Source: Anaerolineae bacterium
GTDB lineage: Bacteria; Chloroflexota; Anaerolineae; SpSt-600
Direction: 5' to 3'
DNA length: 34,642 bases
Assembly: GCA_028275425.1 (NCBI GenBank)
Contig: JAPWUT010000001.1
Coordinates: forward strand, 1 to 34,642
Under the pieces are notes generated by a model, which worked only from the letters and a program-made list of their open reading frames with translations, had not been told where the DNA came from and searched no databases. The first letter of the stretch is position 1; the number at the start of each line of letters is the position of its first letter. A program made the translations under genes and the position numbers. This document shows, piece by piece, positions 7,588 to 22,086 of the stretch.

Positions 7588-8258
7588 GCCTCTATCTTGA
7601 AGGGGTTGAAATCGGTGTCGTAATCAAAGTAGTCCTCCCTCTCAGCCCTTTTCAAGAAGTTCACAATCCGGTAGGTTACGGGGGTCATGATGGCTTCAAC
7701 GCCGCATTTGAACACGTAATTGGAGAGGATTACGCTTCCCAGGAGGGACCAAGGCAAGGCACCAGCGAAGGCTATGGAGCAGAAGAGGAGGGTATCAACC
7801 CCCTCCCCCACTAAAGTTGAGCCTATGGTCCTGGTCCAAAGCCACCGGCCCCGGGTCAGGATTTTCATTTTAGCCAGGGTGTAGGAGTTGGAGAATTCCC
7901 CGGCCCAGTAAGCTATGAGGCTTCCAAGGACGATTCGGGGGGTCATTCCGAGGATTTTTTCGTAGGCTTCTTGGTTTTCCCACCCGGGCGCCGGCGGCAG
8001 CACCCTTACTATGCTCAAGGTCAGGGCCATGAGGGCAGTGCAGAAGAAGCCCATCCATATGACCCGCCGGGACCGCCTGTATCCGTAGACTTCGGTTAGG
8101 ATGTCGCCGAAAATATAGGAGATGGGGAAGAGGATTGTGCCACCGTCAAAGGTGAATGGGCCAAGGAGCAAGATTTTGCTTGAGGCTATGTTGCTTATGA
8201 TTAGCACAGCCACGAAGAGAGCCATTATGAGGTCAAAGTAGCGGTAGCTCCTTTCCAT
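7584..8258 (-). CDS. yhhQ: Queuosine-precursor transporter (YhhQ/DUF165, VUT family) membrane protein
   Basis: 224-aa polytopic membrane protein. N-terminal YFDLIMALFVAVLIISNIASSKI..FDGGTILFPISYIFGDILTEVYGY matches the YhhQ family signature as I recall it. The start overlaps the upstream stop by 1 nt (TAATG). Confidence 0.8.
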   Translation of the reverse strand: MERSYRYFDLIMALFVAVLIISNIASSKILLLGPFTFDGGTILFPISYIFGDILTEVYGYRRSRRVIWMGFFCTALMALTLSIVRVLPPAPGWENQEAYEKILGMTPRIVLGSLIAYWAGEFSNSYTLAKMKILTRGRWLWTRTIGSTLVGEGVDTLLFCSIAFAGALPWSLLGSVILSNYVFKCGVEAIMTPVTYRIVNFLKRAEREDYFDYDTDFNPFKIEA

Positions 8259-10474
8259 TACCGGGCTCTTGCCTCCTTCAGGAGTTTGTAGACTTTTTCC
8301 TCTGTGGCCGGAAGTTCATCAACCCAAATCCCTACTGCATCGTGGATGGCGTTGATGATGGCCGGGGCAGTAGGCAAAGTGGTCATTTCCCCTATGCCTT
8401 TAGCCCCATACGGCCCAGCGGGGTCGGGAACTTCTACGATGATGGGGACAATTTCCGGAGGCATGTCCAGGACGGTAGGTATTGGGTATTCGCTCAAGCG
8501 GCGGGTGCGGGGGTAGCCGCCTTCGTGGATGAAGTGTTCCATGAGGGCATACCCTATGCCCATGTGGACCCCGCCTCCGATTTGGCCAATTATCATTTCG
8601 GGGTTGACGGCCTTGCCTACGTCGTGGGCAGCCCATATTTTCAGGACCGAGACTTGCCCTGTTTCGGTGTCTACTTCTACCAAAGCTATCTGGGTGCCCC
8701 AGCCGTAGCTGATGTGGGGGAAGCACTCTCCCGTTTCGGGGTGGTAAGGTGTGGTCGGCCGTTCAATTCGCCCTCGGTAGGTGTATTCTACTTCCACGGA
8801 GGTCTCGCCGGTTTCTGCCCTGAGGATTTCTTCCTTTCTGCGCAGGGCCAATTCGCAGGCTGCTTTTACTGCATTGCCGGAGATGTAGACGTGGCGGGAG
8901 GCAGAGGAACTTCCGGCATTAGGGACTTCGGCCGTATCCACTAAGGCAATCCGGACTTTTTGGATTGGGATACCCAGGGTGTGGGCAGCGATTTGAGCTA
9001 AAGCCGTATGCACCCCCTCACCTACCTCGGAGGTCCCGATTTTTACGATGGCCCGCGTTATCTCCCCCGATTCATCCCAAGAAAGCATTACCCTTGCGGT
9101 GGCTTTATCATCAAAGCCGAAGCTGTAGCCGACGTTTTTGAAAGCGCAAGCTACCCCAATTCCCCGCCGTTTATATGGCTCTTTGGGCTGCGGGATTTGA
9201 GGCTTTATCCAGCGTCCGTTCTCTTCCCGCCATCCGGCGGCCAGCGCCGCTTGGCGCAGGGTCTCCTTTATCCCCACTCCTGGCGGGAAAGTGGCCCCGG
9301 TAATGGTGGGCGAGCCGTCCTCCACCAAGTTCTTCATCCTTAACTCCACCGGGTCCATCCCCAAAGCTTCGGCCAACTTGTCCATTTGGATTTCGTAGGC
9401 GAAGGCGGGCTGAGGGGAGCCAAAGCCTCGCATCGCCATCGTCACGGCGTTGTTGGTGTAGACGGTGTAAGCATCAACCTTGACGTTTGGCCATACGTAG
9501 GGGCCAAGGGCGAAGCTGGCGGCATTGTTTAGGACGGGTATGCTGGTTGAGGCGTAGGCACCGGCATCGGAAATCATCTCCACTTCGCCAGCCACAAGTT
9601 TCCCATCTTTCTTGGCCCCCCATTTGTGGCGGATGTAGAAGGGGTGGCGCTTCCCAGTGCGCATCATCGTTTCTTCGCGTGTGAAGACCATTTTCACCGG
9701 CCTGCGCACCACGTAAGCACAGAGGGCCAATAGGTGCTGGATGTACATATCCTCCCTTCCCCCGAAGGCTCCCCCTACTGCCGGCACAATCTCCCTCAGT
9801 TTCTCAATCGGAATCTGGAGGAAGTGGGAAATCTGGTGCAGGTCATCGTGAGGCCATTGGGCAGCTGCAATCACCGTTATGCGTCCCTCTTCATCTATGT
9901 AGCCGATTCCAGCCTCGGGTTGGAGGTAGACATGCTCTACGTGAGGGGTTATGTAGTAACCTTCAACGATGACATCGGCCTCCTCAAAGGCCTTTTCCAC
10001 GTCCCCACGGCGTATCTTTATGTGGTGCAAGATGTTTGTGCCTTTTTCTTCGTGGACCAAGGGGGAGCCTGGCTTCATCGCTTCACGGGGGTCGGTTACG
10101 ACAGGTAAGGGCTCGTATTCAACCTTGACCTTTTTGCGTGCCTCTTCGGCTATTTCTTCCGTCTCAGCCACGACGATGGCTATGCGGTCGCCAAGCCATC
10201 GGACCTTGCCCCCTTCGGGGACTAAGACGGTTTGGTCGGGGGTGTGGATTCCGTACTCGTTGAGGGGTACGTCTTTGTAGGTTATGACTTTGACTACCCC
10301 AGGGGTGGCTTCGGCAGCGGAGGTGTCAATTCTCTTCACCCTGGCGTGTGGGTATTGGCTCCATACGACCTTGGCATAAAGTTGGCCGGGCATGTTGAAA
10401 TCTTGGGGGTAGCGTCTTGAGCCCTGGACTTTGGTCTTTATGTCAAGCCTTATGGTGTTTTCGCCCAGAGTCAT
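8258..10474 (-). CDS. Xanthine dehydrogenase/aldehyde oxidase family molybdopterin-binding large subunit
   Basis: An a/b-hammerhead N-terminus is followed by GGAFGGRED (family motif GGGFGGK-like), GEGVHTALAQIAAHTLGIP and C-terminal AKGIGEMTTLPTAPAIINAI. The start was set to ATG 10474 (MTLGEN..), which is preceded by AAGGAGG. The track start at 10498 would overlap the upstream gene. Confidence 0.85.
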   Translation of the reverse strand: MTLGENTIRLDIKTKVQGSRRYPQDFNMPGQLYAKVVWSQYPHARVKRIDTSAAEATPGVVKVITYKDVPLNEYGIHTPDQTVLVPEGGKVRWLGDRIAIVVAETEEIAEEARKKVKVEYEPLPVVTDPREAMKPGSPLVHEEKGTNILHHIKIRRGDVEKAFEEADVIVEGYYITPHVEHVYLQPEAGIGYIDEEGRITVIAAAQWPHDDLHQISHFLQIPIEKLREIVPAVGGAFGGREDMYIQHLLALCAYVVRRPVKMVFTREETMMRTGKRHPFYIRHKWGAKKDGKLVAGEVEMISDAGAYASTSIPVLNNAASFALGPYVWPNVKVDAYTVYTNNAVTMAMRGFGSPQPAFAYEIQMDKLAEALGMDPVELRMKNLVEDGSPTITGATFPPGVGIKETLRQAALAAGWREENGRWIKPQIPQPKEPYKRRGIGVACAFKNVGYSFGFDDKATARVMLSWDESGEITRAIVKIGTSEVGEGVHTALAQIAAHTLGIPIQKVRIALVDTAEVPNAGSSSASRHVYISGNAVKAACELALRRKEEILRAETGETSVEVEYTYRGRIERPTTPYHPETGECFPHISYGWGTQIALVEVDTETGQVSVLKIWAAHDVGKAVNPEMIIGQIGGGVHMGIGYALMEHFIHEGGYPRTRRLSEYPIPTVLDMPPEIVPIIVEVPDPAGPYGAKGIGEMTTLPTAPAIINAIHDAVGIWVDELPATEEKVYKLLKEARAR

Positions 10475-10485
10475 ATTGTGCCTCC

Positions 10486-13400
10486 TTAAGTTAGCCATGC
10501 TCCCAGCACACTTTCTTCGGGGGCCATGATTTGTTCATCGGTGTAATGCAGAAGCTGTATGGCCTTTGCCGGGCATTCGGCGGTGCAGGTTCCGCAACCT
10601 TGGCATTTGGCCGGGTCTATGAAGGCAGCCCCCTTTATTCCCCCGTTCCCGATGGCTTTGGGGTCTATGACCGGGATGTGGAAGGGGCAGATGCGCACGC
10701 AAGTCAAGCAGCCGACGCATTTGGATTGCTCTACTTGGGCTATGACCCCGCCTACCTTGATTTCTTCTTTGGTCAGGTAGGTTAAAGCTCGGGCGGCTGC
10801 GGCTTTGGCCTGAGCTATGGATTCTTCTATGAATTTGGGGTAGTGAGCCATCCCGGCCAGGAAAATCCCTTCGTTTATGAAATCCACCGGCCTCATCTTG
10901 AGGTGAGCTTCAAGGAAGAAGCCCTCAGGGGATAGAGGAACCCTCAGGATTCGGGCCAGCTTTTCGTTATCTTCAGAAGGCAAAATGCCGAGGGTTAGCG
11001 AGATTAGGTCGGGCTTGAGCACCAGGAGTTCACCCGTGCTTTGGTCCTTTACTTCTACCCGGAGTTCTCCGTAGACGACTTTAATGGTAGGGGCTTCCTC
11101 ATCGGTGTAGCGGATGAAGATTGTGCCCAGTTCCCGCGCTTTAGTGTAGTATTCTTCGCGGAAGCCGTAAGTGATTATGTCCTTGTAGAGGACGTAGACC
11201 TCGCAGGAGGGGTTTAGCTCTTTGAGGCGGATGGCGTTGGCCATGGTGTTGGTGCAGCAGATACGGCTGCAGTAATCGTATTTTGGGCTCCTCGGCCGAA
11301 CGCACTGGATTATCGCCACCGACCGGAGGTTCCTGACCCTCTCGGGGTGGTTGACTATGAGCTCTTCAAGCTCCAGCTGGTCCAATATTCTGGGGTCTTC
11401 CCCTTTGAGGTATTCTCTCCCCGAATACATCCTGGCCCCGGTAGCCACGATGGTGACCCCGTGCTCCAGTTCCACATCCTTGTATTTTGTGCGGATTAGG
11501 GAATGGAAGTCTCCTACGTGGCCGTAGTGGTTGATGAGCTCGGCTTCTTTGAAGACGTTGATAAGTGGGTGGTTTTCAACACGGTTGGTGAGGTCCCAGA
11601 GGAGGCGTCGTAGGTCTTTCCCTTCGGCGGTGAAGTGGATTTTCTGGAGGTAGCCGCCGAGGCGATTGCTCTTCTCCACAAGGTAGACTGGGAACCCGGC
11701 ATCGGCTATGGTCAGAGCGGCTACCATTCCTGCCAGCCCGCCCCCGATGACTAATGCTTTCTTTACTGGCTTTACGGAGAATTTTTGCAGGGCTTGCAGG
11801 CGGGCAGCTCTGGCTACTCCAACCCTTAAAGCCTCCATGGCCTTGCGGGTTGCCCCTTCCCTATCGTGAAGGTGGGGCCAGGCGCTGTGTTCCCTTATGT
11901 TCACCAGTTCCAAGTAGTAGGGATTGAGGGAAGCGCGCCTCAGGACTTTCTGGAAAAGCGGTTCGTGTGTGCGTTGGCTGCAGGCCGCTACTACTACTCT
12001 GTTAAGGCCGTGTTCGGTGATTGCTCGGCTGATTTGCTCTTGCCCCTCTGGGAAGCAGGCCAAGTTTACTTGCTGGACATGGACAACCCTGGGCAAGGCT
12101 TTGGCTTTCTGGGCGATAGTTTCCAAGTCAATGCTTTGGCTTATTTCTCCCCCACACCGGCAGAGGAATACCCCAATCCTTGGCTCCTCCCTTGATACAT
12201 CCCTTTCTGGCGGGAACTTCTCTTCACGGTCTAGGGAACCGAGTTTGTCCTTAAGCAAAAGCATCGCTTCTGCAGCTGCTCCGCTGGCTTCGTATAGGGT
12301 TTCAGCTATCTCCTTGGGGGAAGCGAAGGAGCCGCATACGTAAATGCCAGGACGCGATGTCTGCAAGGGGCCAAATTTATCGGTCCAGCAGAAGCCGTAT
12401 TGGTTCAAATCAATACCCAAGATTTCGGCTACCTGGCGGGTGCTTAAGGGTGGCTCCACCCCAACCGATAGGACAACCATGTCAAATTCTTCTTCAACGA
12501 TGTGGCCATCGTCGGTAGCATAGCGCAGGGTTAGGTTGTGAGTGGTTGGGTCTTCGGTGATGGAAGAGACACGTGAGCGAATGTATTCAACGCTGTAGAG
12601 TTCTTTGGAGCGGAGGTAGTAGGCGTTGTATTCTTTGTTGAAAGCCCTTTCATCCATGATGAAGATTTTAGCCTCAACACCCGGGATACGTTGCTTGGCC
12701 AGGACGGCTTCCTTGGTGGAATACATGCAGCAGATTGAAGAGCAGTAGGGATGCTCTTGGTCCCGCGAGCCTATGCACTGAAGCCAAGCAATCTTGCGCG
12801 GTGTAGTGCCATCAGATGGTCGGACTACGATTCCCTCGGTGGGGCCGGAGCGGCTGGCCAGCCTTTCGTACTCCATGCTGGTTATGACGTTGGGGTAGCG
12901 GCCGTAGCCGTACTCTTCGTACCGGCGGGGGTTGAAAAGCCGGTAGCCCATCGCCAGGACTATTGCCCCAACGTTTACCTTCTCTTCCCGAGGCTCCTCT
13001 TTCAGGTTTATGGCCTTAGTGGGGCAGACTTTCTCGCAGCGGCGGCAGGTTTCGCAGAAGTCGGTCTTTTCAATCATGTAAGCGTCGGGGATAGCCCTTG
13101 GGGAACTTTTGTAAGCGAGTTTGCGCATTGCCAAGCCCATTTGGAAGCGGCTTGGCTTCTCCACAGGGCATATCTGAGCGCAGCGGTCGCAGTTAATGCA
13201 AAGGTCAGGATTAACGTATCTTGGATTGACCCTTAGGGTTACGGTGAAATTGCCGGCCTCCCCTTCAAGGCCGACGATTTCGGTATTGACGAAGAGGTGT
13301 ATATTAGGGTGGCGGCTGTAATCCATGAGGGCGGGGGAAATGGTAGGGCGGGTGCAGCCTGGGCCGTGCTCGGCCGTGCCCCGGCAGAGGACGCAGTCAT

Positions 13401-13563
13401 GGGTTGGGAACATGAAGCCCAACTGGGCCACGATTCCACCCAGCCATGGGGTTGATTCCACCAAGTAAACTTCCAATCCAGCATCGGCCACATCCAGAGC
13501 GGCTCTCATCCCCCCTACGCCGCCTCCCAGCACAAGAACGGAGCTCTTCCTTTCGTTCGCCAT
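10486..13563 (-). CDS. Double HdrA-like FAD/Fe-S flavoprotein (tandem heterodisulfide-reductase-A modules; BamE-like architecture)
   Basis: 1025 aa. There are two Rossmann GxGxxG blocks (VLVLGGGVGGMRAALDVADAG; ALVIGGGLAGMVAALTIADAG) and HdrA-type FPTHDCVLC, CSSICCMYS and CSRICCTNT. An internal HdrA N-domain-like segment is present (IGVFLCRCGGEIS..NPYYLELVNIREH). Four ferredoxin CxxCxxCxxxCP motifs are present. Confidence 0.8.
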   Translation of the reverse strand: MANERKSSVLVLGGGVGGMRAALDVADAGLEVYLVESTPWLGGIVAQLGFMFPTHDCVLCRGTAEHGPGCTRPTISPALMDYSRHPNIHLFVNTEIVGLEGEAGNFTVTLRVNPRYVNPDLCINCDRCAQICPVEKPSRFQMGLAMRKLAYKSSPRAIPDAYMIEKTDFCETCRRCEKVCPTKAINLKEEPREEKVNVGAIVLAMGYRLFNPRRYEEYGYGRYPNVITSMEYERLASRSGPTEGIVVRPSDGTTPRKIAWLQCIGSRDQEHPYCSSICCMYSTKEAVLAKQRIPGVEAKIFIMDERAFNKEYNAYYLRSKELYSVEYIRSRVSSITEDPTTHNLTLRYATDDGHIVEEEFDMVVLSVGVEPPLSTRQVAEILGIDLNQYGFCWTDKFGPLQTSRPGIYVCGSFASPKEIAETLYEASGAAAEAMLLLKDKLGSLDREEKFPPERDVSREEPRIGVFLCRCGGEISQSIDLETIAQKAKALPRVVHVQQVNLACFPEGQEQISRAITEHGLNRVVVAACSQRTHEPLFQKVLRRASLNPYYLELVNIREHSAWPHLHDREGATRKAMEALRVGVARAARLQALQKFSVKPVKKALVIGGGLAGMVAALTIADAGFPVYLVEKSNRLGGYLQKIHFTAEGKDLRRLLWDLTNRVENHPLINVFKEAELINHYGHVGDFHSLIRTKYKDVELEHGVTIVATGARMYSGREYLKGEDPRILDQLELEELIVNHPERVRNLRSVAIIQCVRPRSPKYDYCSRICCTNTMANAIRLKELNPSCEVYVLYKDIITYGFREEYYTKARELGTIFIRYTDEEAPTIKVVYGELRVEVKDQSTGELLVLKPDLISLTLGILPSEDNEKLARILRVPLSPEGFFLEAHLKMRPVDFINEGIFLAGMAHYPKFIEESIAQAKAAAARALTYLTKEEIKVGGVIAQVEQSKCVGCLTCVRICPFHIPVIDPKAIGNGGIKGAAFIDPAKCQGCGTCTAECPAKAIQLLHYTDEQIMAPEESVLGAWLT

Positions 13564-13603
13564 AGGCCCAACTCCTCGGTTTTTTGTTAACCCCGGGGTT
13601 GGA

Positions 13604-13631
13604 ATTATACCTTAAATTGGCAAAAAATCAA
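13604..13631 (-). promoter_or_regulatory. Putative sigma70 promoter of the minus-strand hdrA-like operon
   Basis: The minus strand reads TTGATT, a 16-nt spacer, then TATAAT. A perfect 12-bp palindrome AACCCCGGGGTT (13589-13600) and the RBS GAGGAG follow. Confidence 0.5.
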
Positions 13632-13677
13632 GGGGCGGAAGCACTTGGGGTATGGGCCAGAATTTCACACCGACCCT

Positions 13678-13705
13678 TTGACAAAGCCCGACGGTGGTGT
13701 ATAAT
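13678..13705 (+). promoter_or_regulatory. Putative sigma70 promoter of the gcvH-like/lplA/hdrCBA operon
   Basis: Consensus TTGACA (13678-13683), a 16-nt spacer, then consensus TATAAT (13700-13705), about 35 nt upstream of ATG 13741. RBS GGGGGGAAAG. Confidence 0.6.
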
Positions 13706-13740
13706 AAAGCCCGCTTGGACTAAGATAAGGGGGGAAAGCC

Positions 13741-14181
13741 ATGCAGATAGCAGGATTTGATTTCCCCGATGACCTTTACTACGATTCTAAGCACAGCTGG
13801 GGCCGCGTGGAAGGGAATATAGTCACCCAAGGCCTCACCGATTTCGGCCAGAAGCTGGCAAAGGAAATCGTTTACGTGGAAATACCGCCCGTCGGCAAGG
13901 CTGTGACCCAAGGGCAAACCTTCATGTCCATTGAGTCCGGCAAGTGGGTTGGGCGAATCCCGGCCATCGTCAGCGGTAAAATCGTGGCCGTTAACGAGGA
14001 GCTGGAGTGGGAGCCTGCACTCATAAACAAGTCGCCATTTGACCAAGGCTGGCTCGTGAAGATTGAGATGTCCAACCCGGCCGAGCTCGCCAACCTGATG
14101 CGGGCCGATTCCCCCGAATTCAAGGCCTTTATTGAAGCCGAGGCCGAAAAATACAAAGCGGTCCTCAAAGGGGGCAAGTGA
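13741..14181 (+). CDS. gcvH: GcvH-family lipoyl-carrier protein (H-protein-like)
   Basis: ..PPVGKAVTQGQTFMSIESGKWVGRIPAIVSGKIVAVNEEL.. aligns with the canonical H-protein lipoyl-lysine block (..ESVKA..P.SG.IVAVN..). No gcvT or gcvP is present in the window. Confidence 0.85.
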   Translation: MQIAGFDFPDDLYYDSKHSWGRVEGNIVTQGLTDFGQKLAKEIVYVEIPPVGKAVTQGQTFMSIESGKWVGRIPAIVSGKIVAVNEELEWEPALINKSPFDQGWLVKIEMSNPAELANLMRADSPEFKAFIEAEAEKYKAVLKGGK

Positions 14182-15221
14182 TGAAGCTGTATCGCCTTGG
14201 AACTGTACCCTGGCATTACTCCCAACTGCTTTACCATGCTCTCCCCAGGCTTAAGCGCGAAGGACTAATCTTATGCTCCCCCGCTTCCCCCTACGTCTGC
14301 ATCGGCTATTTCCAGGATGCGGAGCAAGAGGTGGACCTGGCTTACTGTAGGGAGCATGGCATCCCTGTCTTCCGGCGCGAGGTAGGGGGAGGGGCCGTTT
14401 ACTTGGATGGGGATCAGCTCTTCTGGCAGCTGGTGATTCGCAAGGATAACCCCTTGATTCCAGCAAGCTGGGAGGAATTCTACCGTCGCTTCCTCCAGGC
14501 CCCAATCGCTGCCTACAGGGCCATAGGCATCCCCGCCCAATACAAGCCCATAAATGACATAATCGCTAACAACCGCAAAATCTCGGGCACAGGGGTGGCC
14601 GAAATCGGCGATTTCGTGGTCTTTGTCGGCAACTTAATCGTTGACTTCAACTACGAGATGATGGTGCGGGTCCTCAAAGTGCCCGATGAGAAGTTCCGGG
14701 ACAAGGTCTACAAGACCCTCCAGGATAACCTTAGCACCATCAAGCGAGAGCTTGGGTATAGCCCTCCGAGGGATGAGCTTTGGGGGCTTTTGGCGGAGAA
14801 GTTTTCCGAGATTTTGGGGCCGATGGAGGAGGAAACGAGGATTGACCCCGATTGGAAAGCGGAAGCAGACCGCTTAGGGGAGATAATGCTGAGTGAGGAG
14901 TGGCTCTTCCTCCGCCGAAGCCCAAAGATTGAGCGAGGAGTTACCATCCGAGCAGGGGTTGAAGTTCGGCAGAGGGCTTACAAGGCCCCCGGAGGCCTCA
15001 TCCGGGCTACGATGGAAGTGAAAGAGGGGGTCATTGCCGATGTTTCCATCTCCGGCGATTTCTTCTTCTATCCGGCCGATCGGCTGGCCGAGCTGGAGCG
15101 GGCCCTGGTTGGCGTGCGGGTAGAGGAAGTGGAGGAGGTCATCGCTCGCTTCTACGTCGAGCACGGTGTAGAAAGCCCTGGCGTGACCCCTGCCGATTTT
15201 GCCATTGCCCTTAGCGGGTAA
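14181..15221 (+). CDS. lplA: Lipoate-protein ligase (LplA/BPL_LplA_LipB family)
   Basis: Contains RREVGGGAVYLDGDQL and NRKISGTG (the catalytic Lys block of LplA-type ligases). ATG 14181 overlaps the gcvH-like stop by 1 nt (TGATG). Confidence 0.8.
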   Translation: MKLYRLGTVPWHYSQLLYHALPRLKREGLILCSPASPYVCIGYFQDAEQEVDLAYCREHGIPVFRREVGGGAVYLDGDQLFWQLVIRKDNPLIPASWEEFYRRFLQAPIAAYRAIGIPAQYKPINDIIANNRKISGTGVAEIGDFVVFVGNLIVDFNYEMMVRVLKVPDEKFRDKVYKTLQDNLSTIKRELGYSPPRDELWGLLAEKFSEILGPMEEETRIDPDWKAEADRLGEIMLSEEWLFLRRSPKIERGVTIRAGVEVRQRAYKAPGGLIRATMEVKEGVIADVSISGDFFFYPADRLAELERALVGVRVEEVEEVIARFYVEHGVESPGVTPADFAIALSG

Positions 15222-15232
15222 GGAGGTGATGG

Positions 15233-15811
15233 ATGGCAGCTATTACTGAAGCTTTGGACCTTGGCCAATTGGACCGGAGCCTGGCTCAACGGGTAAGTCC
15301 TGGCCGGTGGGAAAAGATTCTCTCCTGTATTCAGTGCGGGACTTGCTCTGCTTCCTGCCCTGCAGCGCATGCAATGGACATTTCTCCTCGCCAGATGTGG
15401 CGAATGGTCCAATTGGGTATGACTGAAGAAGTGCTCCGTTCCAAAAGCATTTGGCTTTGCAGCTTATGCTACACTTGTCATGTCCGCTGCCCGCGCGGTA
15501 TTCCGCTTACGGAAACCATCGTCCGTTTGAAGGAATTGGCGATGGAAAGGGGAATCGTCTCCTCTCCCCAGAGTGAAGCTTTCTACCGAGCCTTTGCCGA
15601 GGTGATGCGTCGCTACGGGCGGTTGCGGGAGGTGGAGTTTATGGCCCGCTATTTCTTAGCTTCCAATCCTTTGGCTGCGCTGGGTTTTGCTCGCCTGGGT
15701 CTGACAATGCTGGCCCGGGGCAAAATCCGCCCGGAATTGCCTCGGCTGGGTGGAGAGGGCCGGTTGGACCGCCTCTTCGCGCGGGTGGCTGAGCTGGAGG
15801 AGAAAAGATGA
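15233..15811 (+). CDS. hdrC: Heterodisulfide reductase subunit C-like (4Fe-4S dicluster protein)
   Basis: Two cluster motifs, CIQCGTCSASCP and CSLCYTCHVRCP, sit in the HdrC-typical helical context. RBS AAGGAGGTG. Confidence 0.8.
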   Translation: MAAITEALDLGQLDRSLAQRVSPGRWEKILSCIQCGTCSASCPAAHAMDISPRQMWRMVQLGMTEEVLRSKSIWLCSLCYTCHVRCPRGIPLTETIVRLKELAMERGIVSSPQSEAFYRAFAEVMRRYGRLREVEFMARYFLASNPLAALGFARLGLTMLARGKIRPELPRLGGEGRLDRLFARVAELEEKR

Positions 15812-16656
15812 GGTACATCTTTTATCCCGGTTGCTCTCAGGAGGGCACGGCTTTGGAGTACCGGGATTCCACTTTGGCGGTGCTCCAAGCCTTGGGCGCC
15901 GATGTCCAGGAGCTGGAGGGCTGGACTTGCTGTGGGGCCAGCGTCGCTTCGGTTATGAGCGAGTTGCTGGGCTTTGTCCTCCCGGCCCGTAACCTGGCCC
16001 TGGCCGAAAAACAGGCCAACGGTCGGGACTTGCTCACGGTTTGCAGTGCCTGTTATACCAACTTCCGCCGGACCTTTGCCACCCTGGCTGCCAACCGTCA
16101 ACTTCACCAGAAGGTCAACCAGGCCCTGGAACTAGAGGGTCTGGCTTACCAAGGGACATTAACAGCCCGCCATATTTTGGATGTTTTGGCCAACGATTTC
16201 GGGCCGGAGGCAATTCGGGCGCGCGTGAAGAAGCCGCTGGAAGGGCTTACCGTTGCCCCTTACTACGGTTGCCAGACCGTCCGCCCATATAGCCCGTTTG
16301 ACGATGGGCAGCGCCCTACCTCCATGCTACCTTTGTTAGAAGCGCTGGGGGTCAAGGTCCACCGCCATTCCCGTGAAGCTTCCTGCTGTGGGACTTCGCT
16401 ACTTATGACTAAGCCGGAAGTGGGCCTGACCATGGTTGGCTCAGTACTGGAGGCTTGCGAGGGTGCCGACTGCATCGTGACTGTTTGCCCAATGTGCCAT
16501 ATGAATTTGGACGCTTATCAGGACAAAGTATCACGATTGTTGGGGCGGAAAGTGCAGATTCCTGTCCTTTATCTGCCCCAACTAATAGGCTTGGCTTTGG
16601 GTTTGCCAGAAGAAAAGCTGGGCTTGCGACGGCACATCACGCCGGTGAAGTTTTAA
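15808..16656 (+). CDS. hdrB: Heterodisulfide reductase subunit B-like (two CCG domains)
   Basis: Two CCG-domain signatures (..GWTCCGAS.., ..EASCCGTS..) with the accompanying Cys residues (YPGC, VCSAC, YYGC, CPMC). ATGA overlap with hdrC. Confidence 0.85.
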   Translation: MRYIFYPGCSQEGTALEYRDSTLAVLQALGADVQELEGWTCCGASVASVMSELLGFVLPARNLALAEKQANGRDLLTVCSACYTNFRRTFATLAANRQLHQKVNQALELEGLAYQGTLTARHILDVLANDFGPEAIRARVKKPLEGLTVAPYYGCQTVRPYSPFDDGQRPTSMLPLLEALGVKVHRHSREASCCGTSLLMTKPEVGLTMVGSVLEACEGADCIVTVCPMCHMNLDAYQDKVSRLLGRKVQIPVLYLPQLIGLALGLPEEKLGLRRHITPVKF

Positions 16657-16813
16657 CCGCAAAGAGCGCAAAGGATGCAAAGGTGTTTTAATTTGTCTAA
16701 CCAAATCATAGGCGCGGCGCTTGAGGTCCATCACCAGCTGGGGCCGGGTTTACTGGAATCGGCTTATTTAACGTTCAATAAAAAAATTTGCGCCCTTTGC
16801 GTCCTTTGCGGTT
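16655..16813. mobile_element. MITE-like 159-bp insertion: 27-bp imperfect inverted repeats built from GCAAAGG-type units, enclosing a GxxExxY-gene remnant
   Basis: The left arm AACCGCAAAGAGCGCAAAGGATGCAAA and the reverse complement of the right arm (16787-16813) AACCGCAAAGGACGCAAAGGGCGCAAA match at 23 of 27 positions. It occupies nearly the whole hdrB-hdrA intergenic space. Confidence 0.55.
16699..16770 (+). pseudogene. Remnant (24 codons) of a GxxExxY / PDDEXK_3-family gene
   Basis: Translates as NQIIGAALEVHHQLGPGLLESAYL. This matches the conserved N-terminal block of GxxExxY proteins (..IIGAAIEVHR.LGPGLLESVYE..) from memory. It has no start codon and is truncated right after the motif. Confidence 0.55.
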
Positions 16814-16837
16814 TAATTCCCAAAAGGAGTTAGTCCT

Positions 16838-18796
16838 ATGGAACAGCCGAGGATTGGCGTCTATATCTGCGAGTGTGGCATAAACATTTCGGCTACGGTT
16901 GATGTTAACGCCGTGGCAGAGATAGCTTCCAAGCTCCCTGGCGTTGTCGTGGCCCGAGTCTACAAGTACATGTGCTCCGAACCGGGCCAGAAGATGATAG
17001 CAGAGGACATCCGCAACCTTGGGTTAAATCGGGTTGTGGTGGCCTCCTGCACTCCCCGGATGCATGAATTGACTTTCCAGCGGGTTCTGGAGGCCGCTGG
17101 CCTCAATCCCTATTACTTTGAAATGGCCAACATCCGAGAGCATGTCTCCTGGGTAACTAAGGACCGAAAAGAAGCCACGGAGAAGGCCAAGAGGCTTGTG
17201 CAGGCCGCCGTAATGCGGGTCGCTTTCCACCAGCCCCTGGAGCCACGCCGTGAGCCAGTAACGAAGGCTGCCTTGGTTGTCGGCGGGGGAATCGCCGGAA
17301 TCCAAGCTGCTCTATCCATAGCCGATGCCGGCTATCCGGTCTACTTGGTGGAGAGGGAGCCATCCATCGGCGGCCACATGGCCCAGCTTGATAAAACTTT
17401 CCCCACTCTGGACTGCAGTACCTGAATCCTCGGGCCGAAGATGATGGATGCCGGTCGGCATCCCAACATTACCCTCCTCACCTACAGCGAAGTTGAAGAT
17501 GTATCCGGCTACATCGGCAACTTCACAGTCCGGGTTCGGAAGAAGGCCAGGTCCGTGCGGGAAGAGGTTTGCACCGGCTGCGGCATCTGCCAGGAGAAGT
17601 GCCCGGTTAAAGTCGTTGATACCGGCTTTGAAGCTGGGATGGGTAAGCGCAAGGCTATCTACCGCCCCTTCGCCCAAGCCATCCCTAACGTCCCGGTGAT
17701 TGACCGGGAAAATTGCCTCTGGTTCACTAAAGGCCGATGCCGAGCTTGCGAGAAGCTCTGCCCTGCCGGAGCCATTGACTACGAACAGCAGGACCAAATC
17801 CTGGAGCTTAAGGTAGGGGCAATCGTGGTGGCCACGGGCTTTGCCATGTGGGACCCCCGCAAGCTCCCCCAGTATTCCTATGGCCTTTCCCCCAACATCA
17901 TCACGGGCTTGCAATTTGAAAGGCTCACAAGCGCTGGCGGCCCCACCGGCGGGGAGATATTGACGGCGGAGGGGAAGAAGCCGGAAAGGGTGGCCATAAT
18001 CCACTGCGTGGGAAGCAGGGACGTCAATGCCCACCCCTACTGCTCCCGCATCTGCTGCATGTACTCCCTAAAGCATGCCCACCAAGTGCGCGAGAAGACT
18101 GGCGCCGAAGTCTACGAATTCTACATGGACATGCGCGCTTTCGGGAAAGCCTACGAGGAATTTTACGAGCGCGTCCAGGAAGATGGAGTGATTTTCGTCC
18201 GAGGCCGGGGAGCTGAGGTAGAAGTCCTCCCCAACGGTAAGCTGCGAGTTAAAGGAGAGGATGCCAACTTGGGCCGGCTGGTATTCGTGGACGTGGACAT
18301 GGTAATCCTGGCCACGGCCATAGAGCCTCAGCCCGATGCCGACCGAGTTGCCGCTCTCTTCCGGCTTGGTCGGACCCCTGACGGCTGGTTTGCGGAAGCC
18401 CATCCCAAACTCAGGCCAGTGGAGACGGCCACCGCGGGCATTTTCCTGGCCGGTGCTTGCCAAGGCCCCCGCGACATCCCCGATACCGTCGCCCACGCCG
18501 AGGCTGCAGCCATGGAAGTGGTGAAACTATTCAACCTCGGCGAAGTCGTAATCTCGCCCACCGTCGCCGTAGTGAATGAAGCAGCTTGCGTGGGCTGCGG
18601 AGAATGCATACTGGCCTGCCCTTATTCGGCCATAGCCCGCAACATCCGGGGCAAGGCTGAGGTCAACCCTGCCCTTTGCCAGGGTTGTGGGACCTGCGCC
18701 GCTACCTGTCCTTCCCATGCCATTACTGCCCTTCACTTCACCGACCAAGAGATTGTGGCTCAGATAGATGGCCTATTGGAGCGCGCCATGCTCTGA
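16838..18796 (+). CDS. hdrA: Heterodisulfide reductase subunit A, selenocysteine-containing (UGA at 17423-17425 read as Sec)
   Basis: Track ORFs 16838..17425 and 17441..18796 are in the same frame and separated only by TGA. The joined sequence reads ..GGHMAQLDKTFPTLDCST[U]ILGPKMMDAGRHPN.., the conserved HdrA FPT.DCS.C-IL.PK block with U at the second Cys. Also present are the N-terminal HdrA Fe-S domain, GxGxAG Rossmann, CSRICCMYS, an inserted ferredoxin domain and a C-terminal one. Confidence 0.85.
17441..17469 (+). promoter_or_regulatory. Putative bacterial SECIS hairpin
   Basis: It starts 15 nt after the UGA. The apical perfect stem is GGAUGCC/GGCAUCC (17446-17452 / 17457-17463) with loop GGUC. 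The lower stem AUGAU/AACAU has one mismatch and a bulged C. As I recall, GGUC is the apical loop of the E. coli fdhF SECIS. Confidence 0.55.
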
Positions 18797-18846
18797 AACC
18801 ATGGCCTTGTGCCAAAACGCTGGAAAAACATCCGGAGTAGATAAAC

Positions 18847-19884
18847 ATGCCCTTCGATTTGCCACAGAAAACTGTTGGTTACTTTTGCTCTTACGTGCCC
18901 GAGGAATTGCTCATCGCTGCGGGGTTTAACCCCATCCGCATAATCCCCGGCGCAACCGATGCTTCGCTATCCCAAACCCACCTTCAGAGCTACACTTGTT
19001 ACCTTGCCAGAGCTTGCCTCCACCGGGCCATCAAAGGGGAGCTAAACTCCTTGGAAGGGGTGATTTTCACCCACACTTGCGATACAATGCAATGCCTTGC
19101 CGACATATGGCCCCAAGCTTGCCCCCACAAGATAGTGGAAACCTTCAATTTGCCCACCGTCCTGAGCTCGGAGGAAGCTCTCCCTTACACCATGGCCGAA
19201 CTGGAAAGGCTGAAAAGTCGCTTGGAAGCCTCAACAGGCCTCCTCATCGGGGAGGAAGCCCTGAGAGAGGCCGTAAAGATTGCCAACAGGAAGCGTATCC
19301 TCCTGCAAAACCTGGCCTCAAGGCGGGAGAAAATGCCGGCCTCCCGCTTCTTCAGCCTGGTAAACAAAGCCCTCACCTTGCCTTTAGGAGAGGCCATAAG
19401 TTTCCTGGAGAATTTGGAGGTTGAGGAAGAAGAGAACCCCGGCAAAGTCCGGATAGTGCTGGCCGGCTCAACCCTTGATGACCTCAGTTTGGTTGACTTC
19501 ATAGAAGAAAGCGGGGGCAAAATAGTGGATGATGACTTCTGCAACGGCACTCGTTACTTCCAGACCCTCGCCGATGAGTCCATCCCACCCATTGAGGCCA
19601 TAGCCAGACGTCTCCTTGAAAGGCCAATTTGCCCCTGCAAATTCCTCAAGCCTGGTGCTTACTCCCAAAGCTTGCTGGAGAAAACTCGTAAGGCCAAAGC
19701 CCAAGGATTAATCTTGGTACGCCAGAAATTCTGCGACCCTTGGGGCTGGGAATTCCCGCTCATGCAGTCCCTCTTCCAAGAGAAAAAGGTTCCAATCCTC
19801 ATGGTAGAAGTAGAACAACCCGGAAGCCTTGGCCCCATCGCCACCAGGATACAGGCTTTCTTGGAGATGATAGCGGAGGGATAA
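18847..19884 (+). CDS. 2-hydroxyacyl-CoA dehydratase / BcrC-BadD-HgdB family protein (single subunit, no activase nearby)
   Basis: The N-terminus ..VGYFCSYVPEELLIAAGFNPIRI.. and the conserved Cys positions (FTHTCDTMQC) are typical of this family. Confidence 0.7.
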   Translation: MPFDLPQKTVGYFCSYVPEELLIAAGFNPIRIIPGATDASLSQTHLQSYTCYLARACLHRAIKGELNSLEGVIFTHTCDTMQCLADIWPQACPHKIVETFNLPTVLSSEEALPYTMAELERLKSRLEASTGLLIGEEALREAVKIANRKRILLQNLASRREKMPASRFFSLVNKALTLPLGEAISFLENLEVEEEENPGKVRIVLAGSTLDDLSLVDFIEESGGKIVDDDFCNGTRYFQTLADESIPPIEAIARRLLERPICPCKFLKPGAYSQSLLEKTRKAKAQGLILVRQKFCDPWGWEFPLMQSLFQEKKVPILMVEVEQPGSLGPIATRIQAFLEMIAEG

Positions 19885-19886
19885 AA

Positions 19887-21701
19887 ATGCCCGGAGGATA
19901 TTTAGGCAAAATACTCGTGGTAGACCTCACCCAAGGGCAATGGGAAGTAGAGCCGTTGAGGGAGGAACATGCCTCCCGATTCTTAGGAGGTGGGGGACTT
20001 GCCTGCCGTTACCTCTATGACCTCATCTCCCCCTCCACCGACCCCTTGGGCCCCGATAACATCCTCTTCTTCACCACCGGACCATTGGTGGGGACGAGGG
20101 CTCCTTCCTGTGGCCGCTACACCGCTTGCTTCCTTTCCCCGCTTACAGGAATATGGGGTGAAAGCAATGCTGGCGGATTCTTCGGCCCGGAGATGCGCTT
20201 CGCCGGCTATGATGGAATCCTAATCCGCGGCCGTTCACCCGAACCAGTTTACCTCTGGATTAACGATGGGAAAGTGGAAGTGAGGCCTGCTTCCCACCTC
20301 TGGGGATTGGACACATATAGGGTTCAAGAAGCCATAAAAGAAGAAATCGGGGAGCCAAGAGCCAAGATAGCTTGCATCGGCCCGGCCGGGGAAAAACTGG
20401 TGAAAATGGCCGCCATAATCAACGATAACGCCAGAGCAGCGGCCCGTGGCGGTCCAGGGGCAGTCATGGGCTCAAAGAACCTGAAAGCCATCGCCGTAAA
20501 GGGCTCGGGAACCATCCCCCTCCACAACGAGGCAGCTTTTAACGAAGTAGCCAGGGAAGCCAGGGATTGGGTCCGAGAAGACTTCACCGCCCAACTCTTC
20601 CACTCTGGGGGCACGGCCTTCTGGATGGACCTGGGCCACGAGTTCGGCGATGTCCCGATAAAATACTTCACCAAAGGCTATTTTGAAGGGACCGGCAAAC
20701 TCAGCGGGGCCACCATGGCCGAAACCATCCTGGTCAAGACCAGCGCCTGCTACGGCTGCCCCATCGCTTGTGGTCGGGTCATTGAAGTGAAAGAAGGCCA
20801 ATACAAGCTCCCGGTCACAGAAGGCCCCGAATACGAAACCCTCTGCTCACTCGGAACCCTATTGATGGTTGACAACTTGGCCGCCGTATCCTATGCCAAC
20901 CACCTCTGCAACTCCCTCGGGCTTGACACAATTTCCGTTGGTGTAACCATAGCCTTTGCCTATTACCTTTTTGACCGTGGGGTCGTAAGCGAAAGGGAAG
21001 TGGGCTTTGCCCTCAAGTGGGGTGACCCGGAGGGGGCGATCAGGCTTATAGAGCTCATCTCTCGGAAAGAAGGCTTTGGGGCAATCCTGGCCGAAGGGGT
21101 AAGGTCGGTTGGGGAGCGCTTTGGGCTTCCTGAAGAAGCGGCTCACGTTAAGGGGCTGGAAGTCCCGATGCACGAACCGCGGGCTTTCTTCGGGAGTGCC
21201 CTGGCCTACGCCACATCGCCTCGTGGGGCCTGCCACATGCAGGGTGACCCCTACGCTGTGGACTCTGGGAGCGCCATCCCTGAAATCGGGATAATTCCTG
21301 GGGACCGCTTCAGCGCGGAGGATAAGGCTTGGATGGTAGCTCGCATCCAGGACTGGCGTGCCCTCTACAACTCCATGATAATGTGCCAATTCTGCAGCCC
21401 CGGTCCGGAAAGGATTGCCAAGCTCCTGAGGGAAGCCACAGGGTGGGATATAGGAATTGAGGAGCTTGTAAAGATAGGCAGGGACATCTTTGACCTCAAG
21501 CGGGCATTCAATGTGAAGATGGGGGTAAAACGCCAGGACGATCACCTCCCCTCTTTGCTCCTCCGTCCTCTTCCCGATGGAGGGGCTCAAGGGGCCGTTC
21601 CCGACATGGAAAAACTCCTTGCGGATTACTATGCAGTCCGGGATTGGACCGAAGAAGGCACCCTCAAGCCCGAAAGGATGCGTGAACTGGGGCTGGCTTA
21701 A
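19887..21701 (+). CDS. aor: Aldehyde:ferredoxin oxidoreductase family (tungstopterin) enzyme
   Basis: Start ATG 19887 (MPGGYLGKILVVDLTQG..) lies 2 nt after the upstream stop and has RBS GGAGGG; the track start at 19740 lies inside the previous gene. AOR N-domain, EYETL, 4Fe-4S ligand block ACYGCPIACGR and a later ..GACHMQGD.. are present. Confidence 0.9.
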   Translation: MPGGYLGKILVVDLTQGQWEVEPLREEHASRFLGGGGLACRYLYDLISPSTDPLGPDNILFFTTGPLVGTRAPSCGRYTACFLSPLTGIWGESNAGGFFGPEMRFAGYDGILIRGRSPEPVYLWINDGKVEVRPASHLWGLDTYRVQEAIKEEIGEPRAKIACIGPAGEKLVKMAAIINDNARAAARGGPGAVMGSKNLKAIAVKGSGTIPLHNEAAFNEVAREARDWVREDFTAQLFHSGGTAFWMDLGHEFGDVPIKYFTKGYFEGTGKLSGATMAETILVKTSACYGCPIACGRVIEVKEGQYKLPVTEGPEYETLCSLGTLLMVDNLAAVSYANHLCNSLGLDTISVGVTIAFAYYLFDRGVVSEREVGFALKWGDPEGAIRLIELISRKEGFGAILAEGVRSVGERFGLPEEAAHVKGLEVPMHEPRAFFGSALAYATSPRGACHMQGDPYAVDSGSAIPEIGIIPGDRFSAEDKAWMVARIQDWRALYNSMIMCQFCSPGPERIAKLLREATGWDIGIEELVKIGRDIFDLKRAFNVKMGVKRQDDHLPSLLLRPLPDGGAQGAVPDMEKLLADYYAVRDWTEEGTLKPERMRELGLA

Positions 21702-21749
21702 GGCCAATCTCCGCTCGGGAGAGAGACCAGGGGAGAGATTAACCCCCAG

Positions 21750-21934
21750 AACGCTGGCGGACCCTAAGCCCACGGGGGTGGGCAAATGGGGGGTCCAGGG
21801 GGCGCAAGCCCCCTGGCAGGGGGTGTGGGGGATGTGCCCCCAAAACAAAAAGAGGGGGCGAGCCGCCCGCATTATCAACCCCGCCACGAGTGGGGCCCCA
21901 AAACGCTGGCGGACCCTAAGCCAACGAGGGTGGG
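21750..21934 (+). repeat. Single copy of repeat element B plus a terminal partial unit
   Basis: AACGCTGGCGGACCCTAAGCCCACGGGGGTGGGCAAATGGGGGGTCCAGGGGGCGCAAGCCCCCTGGCAGGGGG.. has a perfect GCAA hairpin at 21795-21816. It ends with AACGCTGGCGGACCCTAAGCCAACGAGGGTGGG, as the 4214-5008 array does. It begins about 50 nt after the aor stop. Confidence 0.85.
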
Positions 21935-22027
21935 ATAATTTTCCTAAAATTACCCCCAAGCCTTCGGCTGGATAAAAAGAAAGCGTCGGCGAAAGCCAAC
22001 GCCTGCCAAGAAAACTGATTTAAACCC

Positions 22028-22056
22028 TTGCCAGAAGAAAAAAGCTGTGCTAAAAT
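22028..22056 (+). promoter_or_regulatory. Putative sigma70 promoter (extended -10) of the zinc-ribbon gene
   Basis: TTGCCA, a 17-nt spacer (ending in the TGc of the extended -10), then TAAAAT, about 30 nt upstream of ATG 22087. Confidence 0.5.
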
Positions 22057-22086
22057 TAGGCCATAGAATCGGGTTGGGGGGAAGAA

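Follow-up and report, generated by a model that had tools for sequence, protein, structure and literature searches.

What does a lipoyl-carrier protein resembling the H-protein of glycine cleavage do at the head of a group of heterodisulfide reductase (Hdr) genes? The question is raised by a 34,642-nt stretch of DNA from an Anaerolineae bacterium (Chloroflexota; GenBank assembly GCA_028275425.1, contig JAPWUT010000001.1, positions 1 to 34,642), hereafter the window, in which the genes for a GcvH-like carrier and a lipoate-protein ligase are followed on the (+) strand by hdrC, hdrB, hdrA, a gene of the HGD-D family and a gene of the AOR family. Here, we report that the first five of these seven genes form the conserved unit, that the carrier gene is linked to Hdr genes of several kinds in Chloroflexota, and that the carrier can be assigned to a GcvH-like subfamily of its own; on balance, we favor the view that its lipoyl group is a substrate of HdrB. 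Families were assigned to the window genes by Pfam and NCBIfam profile scans, and the operon comprises the following features.

13678..13705, (+) strand: putative sigma-70-type promoter (TTGACA, 16 nt, TATAAT), 12 of 12 consensus positions
13741..14181, (+) strand: GcvH-like lipoyl carrier, 146 aa, lipoyl-Lys68 in ESGKWVGR (PF01597, GCV_H, E = 4e-38)
14178/14181..15221, (+) strand: two-domain lipoate-protein ligase, LplA-B_cat plus Lip_prot_lig_C (PF21948, E = 1e-38; PF10437, E = 2e-9)
15233..15811, (+) strand: HdrC-like 2x[4Fe-4S] subunit (Fer4_8 and Fer4_17)
15808..16656, (+) strand: HdrB, two complete CCG domains, i.e., non-cubane [4Fe-4S] sites (PF02754, two stretches)
~16654..16816, no strand assigned: 163-nt insertion resembling a miniature inverted-repeat transposable element (MITE), bounded by inverted repeats (arms 16652-16688 and 16780-16816)
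16838..18796, (+) strand: full-length HdrA, 652 aa, with a putative selenocysteine (Sec) codon, TGA 17423-17425 (structure match 8rvu/5odc)
17446..17463, (+) strand: candidate bacterial selenocysteine insertion sequence (SECIS) hairpin, 7-bp stem and GGUC loop, 21 nt past the TGA
18847..19884, (+) strand: HGD-D family (HgdB/BcrC/BzdN-like) Fe-S protein (PF06050, E = 2e-71)
19887..21701, (+) strand: AOR-family enzyme (AFOR_N, E = 3e-126; AFOR_C, E = 9e-84)

The preliminary description of this DNA had placed seven same-strand genes behind a single consensus promoter, and each gene proved to lie where it was placed and to belong to the family named. The promoter is the only perfect match in the 9 kb from 13400 to 22400, although the total of promoter-like sites in that range equals the expectation from shuffled sequence. 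The junctions also read as described: TGATG between the gcvH-like gene and lplA, ATGA between hdrC and hdrB, and a 2-nt spacer between the HGD-D gene and aor. The other spacers measure 11 nt (lplA/hdrC), 181 nt (hdrB/hdrA), and 50 nt (hdrA/HGD-D), and the sequence scan found no (+) strand terminator-like site between the seven genes. Translation of the ligase probably starts at ATG 14181, which overlaps the gcvH stop and is where other gene callers begin the gene. The sole large gap is indeed filled by a MITE-like insertion: the 163-nt element has 37-nt inverted-repeat ends and is missing from locus L092, where the blastn alignment breaks at ~16654 and 16816 and a spacer of just 5 nt separates hdrB from hdrA. 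Because its nucleotide identity to the window is ~87-88%, L092 is considered another, sister species. A fragment of ~26 codons inside the element resembles, by eye only, the N-terminus of GxxExxY-family proteins, and in two further relatives (L046 and L022) a small inserted gene, encoding a four-helix-bundle protein as judged by eye, lies just past hdrA; intergenic spots around hdrA seem prone to small mobile insertions. The same stretch of DNA was found on four metagenome contigs.

Conservation was assessed in two sets of loci. For the first, an alignment of the carrier and 18 homologues (A1) was scanned against one genome per GTDB species, which gave 450 genomes with a relative; the best 80 of these, all from Chloroflexota and 61-98% identical, were taken with up to 10 kb of flank each, and their neighbors were searched by tblastn with the window proteins and with recurrent neighbor families. 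The second set consisted of 80 metagenome loci from a scan with an alignment of divergent members, 49-58% identical to representative P0244. Motif residues in this set were selected by the scan pattern, so that only the position corresponding to E. coli Glu14 (see below) and the gene context are independent there, and context was counted on the 49 of the 80 loci whose flank reaches 3 kb or more on one side.

The order gcvH-like-lplA-hdrC-hdrB-hdrA proved colinear in L012, L013, and L014 (78-95% amino acid identity), in L092, and in metagenome contig L174, while the same five genes occur rearranged in L022, L042, L046, L076, L084, and L089. This five-gene core is the conserved unit. The tie between the carrier-ligase pair and Hdr that had been proposed for this operon therefore stands, whereas the whole gcvH-lplA-hdrCBA-hgdB-aor synteny was recovered only in L092.

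Beyond the core, the carrier gene is associated with Hdr-type genes more generally. A CCG-domain protein, either HdrB or an HdrD-like protein of ~405 aa, is encoded within 10 kb of it in 62 of the 80 genomes; the distance is at most 3 kb in 45 genomes and at most 1 kb in 26. As a rule, the two genes share a strand and are direct neighbors. Within the same 10 kb, we found HdrD-like proteins (54 genomes), LplA (42), a NarI-like membrane protein (37), HdrA (27), MvhD (17), the large subunit of [NiFe] hydrogenase (11), a NuoF-like protein (10), and a Psr-like molybdopterin oxidoreductase (10). At least five architectures are represented. The commonest joins the carrier to a membrane NarI-like/HdrD-like pair (carrier-NarI-like-HdrD-like); the others are HdrD-like or HdrCB-HdrA-MvhD-(hydrogenase)-carrier, carrier-HdrD-like-HdrA-NuoF-like-HdrA-LplA, carrier-Mo-oxidoreductase…cytochrome/NarI-HdrD-like-LplA, and carrier-LplA alone. 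Because these architectures differ, the association of the carrier with Hdr is not one inherited block. The second set agrees, with a CCG protein within 8 kb in 35 of 49 loci and some Hdr component in 38.

No gene for GcvT or GcvP lies in the window, as had been noted earlier, or in any of 89 loci examined (tblastn with E. coli MG1655 queries, E ≤ 1e-5). The same was true of all 81 second-set loci (flanks of ~8 kb), so that this check covered flanks of ~8-10 kb in 89 + 81 loci rather than whole genomes. Lpd gave one match in each group. In the first set it is L036, the only locus there whose carrier gene is directly preceded by an Lpd-like gene (872-2227; 38% identity with the E. coli protein).

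The carrier retains the GCV_H fold with its lipoyl-lysine in an E-S-x-K hairpin, Lys68 aligning with Lys64 of E. coli, and its nearest database relatives are all labeled as Anaerolineae, Thermoflexia, or Chloroflexota metagenome-assembled genomes (MAGs). Its score against the gcvH equivalog model TIGR00527 is 100.8 bits, below the cutoff of 115.85. The lipoyl hairpin ESGKWVGR is invariant among all 81 members of the clade, and the H-proteins of E. coli, pea, and Thermotoga read ESVKA(A/T)(S/A)D at the same place. In E. coli numbering, the clade invariably replaces Val63, Ala65, Ser67, and Asp68 by Gly, Trp, Gly, and Arg; the last two changes were each counted in 81 of 81 members, and that at Asp68 reverses the charge. 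In the 81 clade members, the Glu14 position is occupied mostly by Gly, Asn, Ser, or Asp and never by Glu, and none of the 80 second-set members has Glu there either. A study that combined molecular dynamics with mutagenesis placed Glu14, Ser67, and Asp68 among the residues of the E. coli H-protein that hold the aminomethyl-lipoyl arm in its cavity and govern its release to the T-protein (PMC7733448), and none of these three arm-handling residues is retained in the carrier clade.

Cysteines are lacking in the window carrier and in 79 of the 81 clade members. The lipoate-binding protein LbpA is defined by two conserved cysteines, one N-terminal and one C-terminal, in addition to its lipoyl-lysine (PMC6067878). 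Membership in LbpA was rejected for the carrier on the absence of both, a separation drawn on this sequence feature. Judged by its sequence, then, the carrier belongs to a distinct GcvH-like subfamily and is neither an ordinary H-protein nor an LbpA. An exhaustive search of 1.84 billion cluster representatives showed that the motif E-[ST]-G-K-W-[VL]-G reaches many clusters that are 40-57% identical to the window carrier.

Several variations on the theme were seen among divergent members. In the second set (L101-L180), 61 of 80 carriers have a cysteine six residues ahead of the lipoyl-lysine (QGKPCGSMESGKW), where the Anaerolineae clade has Phe, and 35 of 80 have a further one (KGWICKI); in part of the family, these extra cysteines may have been added as redox-active groups. 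Protein P0241 (1391 aa) carries three GcvH-like domains without the lysine, fused to an HdrD-like C-terminus with two 4Fe-4S and two CCG motifs, and its middle region reads by eye as a GlcD-like flavoprotein (FAD oxidase). The same three lysine-less domains occur in tandem in L049 (16300-17769), and in P0272 such a domain is joined to a GAF-histidine kinase. Two further divergent members, P0245 and P0248, sit on contigs shorter than 1 kb that carry no context information.

The ligase encoded behind the carrier combines an LplA catalytic domain with an LplB-like C-terminal domain (NF053749 LplB score 77.9, above the cutoff of 65), and Chloroflexota have been reported as recipients of archaeal Lpl(AB) ligases (PMC10332631).

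Which type of Hdr does this carrier gene accompany? The preliminary description had read HdrA as a full-length, bifurcation-type protein with Sec, encoded beside only one hdrC and one hdrB, and both points were borne out, the latter by the Pfam scan. HdrA aligns end to end (residues 1-648) with the methanogen HdrA structures 8rvu/5odc (E = 1e-223 to 4e-223; ~58% identical to 8rvu as judged by eye on the alignment), including the N-terminal Fe-S, TrxR-like FAD, inserted ferredoxin, and C-terminal ferredoxin domains, whereas the short sHdrA structure 6tjr gives only a partial match. The in-frame TGA at 17423-17425 aligns with the second Cys of the DCSMCIL block in solved methanogen HdrA, and the relatives' hdrA orthologues are split at the same point; Sec is the best reading of this codon for these two reasons. 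The GGUC loop of the hairpin that follows is one that we take to match the SECIS loop of E. coli fdhF. Because its folding energy is not significant relative to shuffles (z-score −0.86), this SECIS candidate is suggestive only, and an Rfam scan of the window returned one tRNA and no SECIS or riboswitch family at threshold. The match of HdrB to its methanogen counterpart 5odc_B is likewise full-length (E = 6e-43) and brings the Cys motifs of both CCG domains into register. The best NCBIfam match of the HdrC-like protein is TIGR03290 (CoB-CoM heterodisulfide reductase subunit C), below cutoff, and the equivalog cutoffs for HdrA, HdrB, and HdrC were all missed. The two CCG motifs of HdrB and the two [4Fe-4S] sites of HdrC are nonetheless those of a methanogen-type HdrABC.

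The two genes at the end of the operon do not share this conservation. An AOR gene lies within 10 kb of the carrier gene in none of the 80 genomes and an HGD-D gene in one, and the pair directly past hdrA is confined to this lineage and L092, which shares the full arrangement, including the divergent HdrL-like and molybdenum (Mo)-hydroxylase genes described below. HGD-D homologues that are at least 73% identical (73-76%) are each followed, 2 nt on, by an AOR orthologue that is 85-87% identical, and three such pairs stand alone (L093, 10001-12879; L094, 3917-6795; L095, 10001-12879), with no Hdr or carrier gene beside them and with the neighborhoods of L093/L094 and L095 unrelated. A conserved seven-gene system was rejected on these grounds, and HGD-D-AOR is a separate, independently conserved two-gene module. 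More distant homologues of the HGD-D protein were found without AOR in L097 (55% identical) and, in L096 (41% identical), within a cluster of the classical make-up, with two ATPase genes and two HGD-D genes.

In the closest relatives, L012 and L014, the operon stops at hdrA, which is followed by an rpoD-like sigma factor gene (by eye) in L012 and by a convergent gene in L014. In L046 and L022, the small inserted gene past hdrA is followed by mvhD, which in L046 precedes genes for an Fe-S protein and a formate-dehydrogenase-like enzyme. Because these relatives have mvhD after hdrA, HGD-D-AOR sits in the slot of their donor module, a position that may be compatible with AOR feeding HdrA, though well short of evidence for it.

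As for the enzymatic identity of this module, the best solved relatives of the HGD-D protein are HadC (3o3m_B) and BzdN (8s02_B), both beta-type subunits. Neither an alpha partner nor a BcrAD_BadFG activator ATPase was found among the window open reading frames (ORFs) scanned (Pfam, larger ORFs); a 2-hydroxyacyl-CoA dehydratase or class I benzoyl-CoA reductase has two HGD-D proteins and an activator, and here a single HGD-D is encoded. We know of no described enzyme composed of an orphan HGD-D protein and an AOR without an activator or a second HGD-D. AOR matches the Pyrococcus furiosus enzyme (1aor) over its full length (E = 4e-143) with the C-x2-C-x3-C cluster motif aligned, and 9mqx likewise over its full length, whereas BamB (4z3w) matches only over the N-terminal domain (residues 7-230; E = 2e-64). 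On these alignments it is of the Pyrococcus AOR type and not of the BamB type, and its cofactor, going by the family, would be of the tungstopterin type. The analogy with BamB-I that had been drawn for this operon fails at the sequence level, and no Bam partner set is present.

How might these components work together? In our proposal, the two-domain ligase would lipoylate Lys68 of the carrier, which would act as a specialized GcvH-like protein and not as a glycine-cleavage H-protein. Its lipoyl disulfide/dihydrolipoyl dithiol would be turned over at the two non-cubane [4Fe-4S] clusters of HdrB, placing the carrier in the role that CoM-S-S-CoB (the heterodisulfide of coenzymes M and B) has in methanogens and that DsrC has for DsrK. 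HdrC would then pass electrons to the FAD of the full-length Sec-containing HdrA, a protein of the flavin-based bifurcation type, which would link the lipoyl couple (~−290 mV) to ferredoxin and a third redox partner. HGD-D-AOR could feed or drain electrons at HdrA, which is the weakest step. Both bifurcation and the direction in which electrons flow are read from this set of genes by inference, as is whatever part AOR may play. Chemically, the lipoyl-lysine arm resembles coenzyme B: both are acyl amide thiols, with a C8 chain in the former and a C7 chain in the latter. We consider it somewhat probable that HdrB uses the carrier as its dithiol/disulfide substrate, and because its gene adjoins such varied Hdr modules, the carrier probably moves reducing equivalents back and forth between soluble Hdr-type enzymes and those in the membrane.

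A broader proposal is more tentative and, as we see it, possible but rather short of probable. According to it, the subfamily defined by E-[ST]-G-K-W-[VL]-G-[RK] would be a widespread lipoyl disulfide electron carrier, the bacterial counterpart of CoM-S-S-CoB and DsrC, reduced by HdrABC and re-oxidized by a membrane NarI/HdrD complex that reduces menaquinone. HdrABC would be fed by hydrogenase, formate dehydrogenase, or NuoF-like modules, and here possibly by AOR. Oxidation of the dihydrolipoyl carrier by menaquinone through NarI/HdrD would release ~40 kJ/mol, and the energetics fit a cycle like the CoM-S-S-CoB cycle of methanogens.

Several points weigh against a carrier that serves Hdr. The link is drawn from gene neighborhood, and the neighborhood counts come from related genomes that are not phylogenetically independent, though their architectures differ. 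Of 37 loci that extend 5 kb or more to each side, four (L038, L043, L054, and L088) have the gcvH-like-lplA pair without an Hdr gene within 10 kb. Neither MvhD, through which electron-donor modules dock onto methanogen-type HdrABC, nor any other module known to donate to HdrA is encoded in the operon itself. The lipoyl couple, at ~−290 mV, lies far below CoM-S-S-CoB (~−140 mV), and because it is so low, it would provide little driving force as the high-potential acceptor of a bifurcation; with H2 (−414 mV) as donor and ferredoxin (~−500 mV) as acceptor, such a reaction would be only marginally exergonic. Finally, the carrier is still ~38-45% identical to genuine H-proteins across the aligned region and passes the NCBI GcvH subfamily cutoff (NF002270, 136 versus 117), and it could still serve glycine cleavage.

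This last point can be extended into an explanation of the whole neighborhood, in which the carrier is a genuine H-protein of glycine cleavage or glycine synthase, its T- and P-proteins are encoded elsewhere, and HdrCBA or HdrD/NarI replaces the L-protein, using ferredoxin or quinone instead of NAD. The NF002270 score, the retained lipoyl-lysine, and the fact that the best solved relatives are all H-proteins (E ~1e-25) fit such a role, the near absence of Lpd (one match in 89 loci) fits the replacement of the L-protein, and no second gcvH was seen in the loci examined, as distinct from whole genomes. What makes it unlikely is that gcvT/gcvP were found in 0 of 89 and 0 of 81 loci, that the TIGR00527 score falls below its cutoff, and that Val63, Ala65, Ser67, and Asp68 are all substituted and Glu14 is lost, three of these residues (Glu14, Ser67, and Asp68) having a role in handling the aminomethyl-lipoyl arm in E. 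coli (PMC7733448).

Could all seven genes instead encode one supercomplex, in which the HGD-D protein acts as an Fe-S adaptor for AOR and AOR is physically coupled to HdrA, so that, much as in BamB-I, bifurcation would tie aldehyde/acid redox chemistry to both ferredoxin and the lipoyl carrier? This was in essence the coupling suggested earlier for the locus, and part of it is apparent here: the gaps of 50 and 2 nt are tight, no promoter-like or terminator-like site was found in the scan between hdrA and aor, the whole arrangement is kept in L092, and a place in the relatives' mvhD slot (followed in L046 by the formate-dehydrogenase-like gene) fits exchangeable donor modules. Outside this lineage and L092, however, the coupling dissolves. 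Besides the counts near the carrier gene (AOR 0 of 80, HGD-D 1 of 80), the orthologous pairs (73-76% and 85-87% amino acid identity) stand in three other contexts without Hdr, the operons of L012 and L014 end at hdrA, AOR resembles the Pyrococcus type rather than BamB, and no MvhD-like adaptor is present. We doubt that the seven genes form such a complex.

Because sHdr is marked by the combination of a lipoate-binding protein, an Hdr-like complex, and a dedicated ligase (PMC6067878), the carrier might instead handle sulfur as LbpA does, its dihydrolipoyl arm taking or reducing sulfane sulfur, thiosulfate, or polysulfide and being recycled by Hdr in an anaerobic or reversed counterpart of sHdr-LbpA. 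The LplB-like domain of the ligase, considered with the reported acquisition of archaeal Lpl(AB) by Chloroflexota (PMC10332631), and the Psr-like oxidoreductase near 10 of the 80 carrier genes lend themselves to this idea, as does the divergent member L098, encoded among DsrE, DsrE, DsrH, TusA, DsrE, and HdrD-like genes. Yet the two cysteines of LbpA are missing, with 79 of 81 clade members entirely free of cysteine; the window contains no DsrE, TusA, or rhodanese gene; HdrA is long and bifurcating; and hdrC and hdrB are not duplicated. A general sulfur-relay link was tried and rejected, since the DsrE/DsrH/TusA proteins of L098 match L098 only among the 81 second-set loci. We regard sulfur handling as distinctly unlikely for the window carrier.

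The L098 cluster (465-6290) deserves a description of its own. It joins an ESGKWVGR-type gene to genes for a multiheme cytochrome c, an HdrD-like protein, DsrE, DsrE, DsrH, TusA, DsrE, and a second CCG protein; it may represent lipoyl-protein-dependent sulfur trafficking distinct from sHdr-LbpA and hints at a sulfur-related role for parts of the family.

Least probable of all, to the point of being improbable, is that the gcvH-like-lplA pair is a housekeeping lipoylation or lipoyl-relay unit, like the GcvH relay of Bacillus, beside redox genes by chance: the pair does occur alone near rpsT or other housekeeping genes in L007-L009, L038, L043, L054, and L088, and GcvH is a lipoyl relay in Firmicutes (PMC6067878), but linkage to CCG genes, seen with varied architectures in 62 of the 80 genomes and again in 35 of the 49 metagenome loci, the overlapping gcvH-like/lplA and hdrC/hdrB junctions, and fusion proteins that join the GcvH fold to HdrD-like domains all speak against it.

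Divergent from the operon, the window carries two further redox genes.

10486..13563, (−) strand: HdrL-like flavoprotein, 1025 aa, two HdrA-like units plus ferredoxin domains
8258..10498, (−) strand: large subunit of a xanthine-dehydrogenase-family Mo-hydroxylase, 746 aa, overlapping the HdrL-like gene by 13 nt

The 2Fe-2S and FAD subunits usual for Mo-hydroxylases are not encoded beside 8258-13563. This pair is conserved next to the operon in L092 only, and like the HGD-D-AOR appendage it is a lineage-specific addition. Downstream of aor (22087-25974) lie genes for a Zn-ribbon protein, a 521-aa TnpB-like protein (IS200/IS605-type accessory), a Zn-dependent alcohol dehydrogenase, and a phosphate acetyl/butyryl transferase. 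The latter two enzymes could act on AOR products, but the mobile-element gene stands between aor and the two genes that encode them, and neither of these genes is conserved in L092. Further on, a tRNA (28670-28741, (−) strand) lies inside the 5′ part of a called 341-aa ORF (28535-29560), of which only the C-terminal 210 residues match uracil phosphoribosyltransferase, and the real gene for this reason probably starts downstream of the tRNA.

If the carrier is indeed the substrate of HdrB, what would follow? Genes for HdrABC, MvhD, and HdrD/DsrK-like proteins are widespread among anaerobes other than methanogens, for which synthesis of coenzyme M or B is not known, and which substrate these enzymes reduce has been a standing question for more than a decade; papers still link non-methanogen HdrABC to an 'unidentified heterodisulfide'. 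To our knowledge, the only established partners of Hdr-type enzymes outside methanogens are DsrC in sulfate reducers and LbpA in sulfur oxidizers. This locus and its relatives nominate a testable candidate in the lipoylated GcvH-like protein, which is recognizable by its motif and comes with a dedicated ligase, and the system would be simple to reconstitute from the carrier, the ligase, and three Hdr subunits. Should the proposal hold, the long-sought 'heterodisulfide' of non-methanogenic Hdr systems would be named, Chloroflexota and other anaerobes would possess a lipoate-based energy-conserving redox cycle, and lipoate, besides its part in 2-oxoacid and glycine metabolism, would also serve electron bifurcation and respiration under anaerobic conditions. 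Chloroflexota metagenomes contain many genes annotated as 'glycine cleavage H protein' and read as C1 metabolism, and these annotations would then need correcting.

Among known systems, the closest in composition is sHdr-LbpA of Hyphomicrobium denitrificans, Thioalkalivibrio, Aquifex, and Sulfolobales, which likewise unites a GcvH-homologous carrier, a ligase, and HdrA/B/C homologues, and in which LbpA is required and has a dedicated ligase (PMC6067878, PMC10332631). The differences are considerable. The window HdrA is a 652-aa bifurcation type with a putative Sec, whereas sHdrA has ~350 aa; hdrC and hdrB are single, whereas sHdr has hdrC1B1/hdrC2B2, in the gene order hdrC1B1A-hyp-hdrC2B2 and accompanied by the sulfur transferases DsrE and TusA; the carrier has neither LbpA cysteine; and the small domain of the ligase is fused. 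The window has no DsrE, TusA, or LipS1/S2 genes, DsrE/TusA domains being absent from the operon genes and larger window ORFs in the Pfam scan, and the hosts here are Anaerolineae and related Chloroflexota MAGs.

The methanogen MvhADG-HdrABC/HdrDE system offers full-length, collinear homologues of HdrA, HdrB, and HdrC, and the relatives of the window add MvhD with [NiFe] hydrogenase or a formate-dehydrogenase-like gene, as well as the NarI-like/HdrD-like membrane pair. The proposed substrate differs, being a protein-bound lipoyl disulfide instead of CoM-S-S-CoB; Anaerolineae are bacteria not expected to make coenzyme M or B, and the lipoyl couple lies ~150 mV lower. DsrC-DsrMK(JOP) is similar in that a small dithiol/disulfide protein is found beside an HdrD/DsrK-like CCG protein and a NarI/DsrM-like cytochrome b, but the redox group is lipoyl on a GcvH fold here and two cysteines on a DsrC fold there, and no dsrAB context was seen in the window or among the recurrent neighbor families of the loci. 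Class II benzoyl-CoA reductase BamB-I shares an AOR-family enzyme encoded with HdrA-like bifurcation components; the window, in contrast, lacks BamC-I homologue sets, and its AOR-Hdr pairing is not conserved.

In the literature searched, GcvH or lipoyl proteins are connected with Hdr only in the sHdr-LbpA papers and in a speculation on Culexarchaeia, and we found no account of the subfamily or its motif, of a ligase-plus-HdrCBA operon, or of pairing with HdrD/NarI, Mvh-HdrA, or Fdh-Hdr modules in Chloroflexota. The preliminary description had not recognized the gene combination as a described system, and this is true of the operon but not of the idea behind it, since sHdr-LbpA is established and the Culexarchaeia proposal is prior. 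In the latter, a gcvH gene lies inside the Hdr gene cluster, as here, namely, the Ehe cluster (group 4 hydrogenase, HdrA2B2C2, GcvH), and its lipoyl disulfide was speculated to interact with HdrB/HdrA2B2C2 (PMC9723716). The Culexarchaeia case concerns archaea, included neither a ligase nor a circumscribed subfamily, and was put forward as a suggestion only; the present family is bacterial, can be recognized by its motif, comes with a ligase, and has had its linkage counted in more than 100 loci. Cooperation between a lipoate-binding protein and an Hdr-like complex is thus a known theme; this subfamily, its operon, and its systematic pairing with Hdr modules appear to be new.

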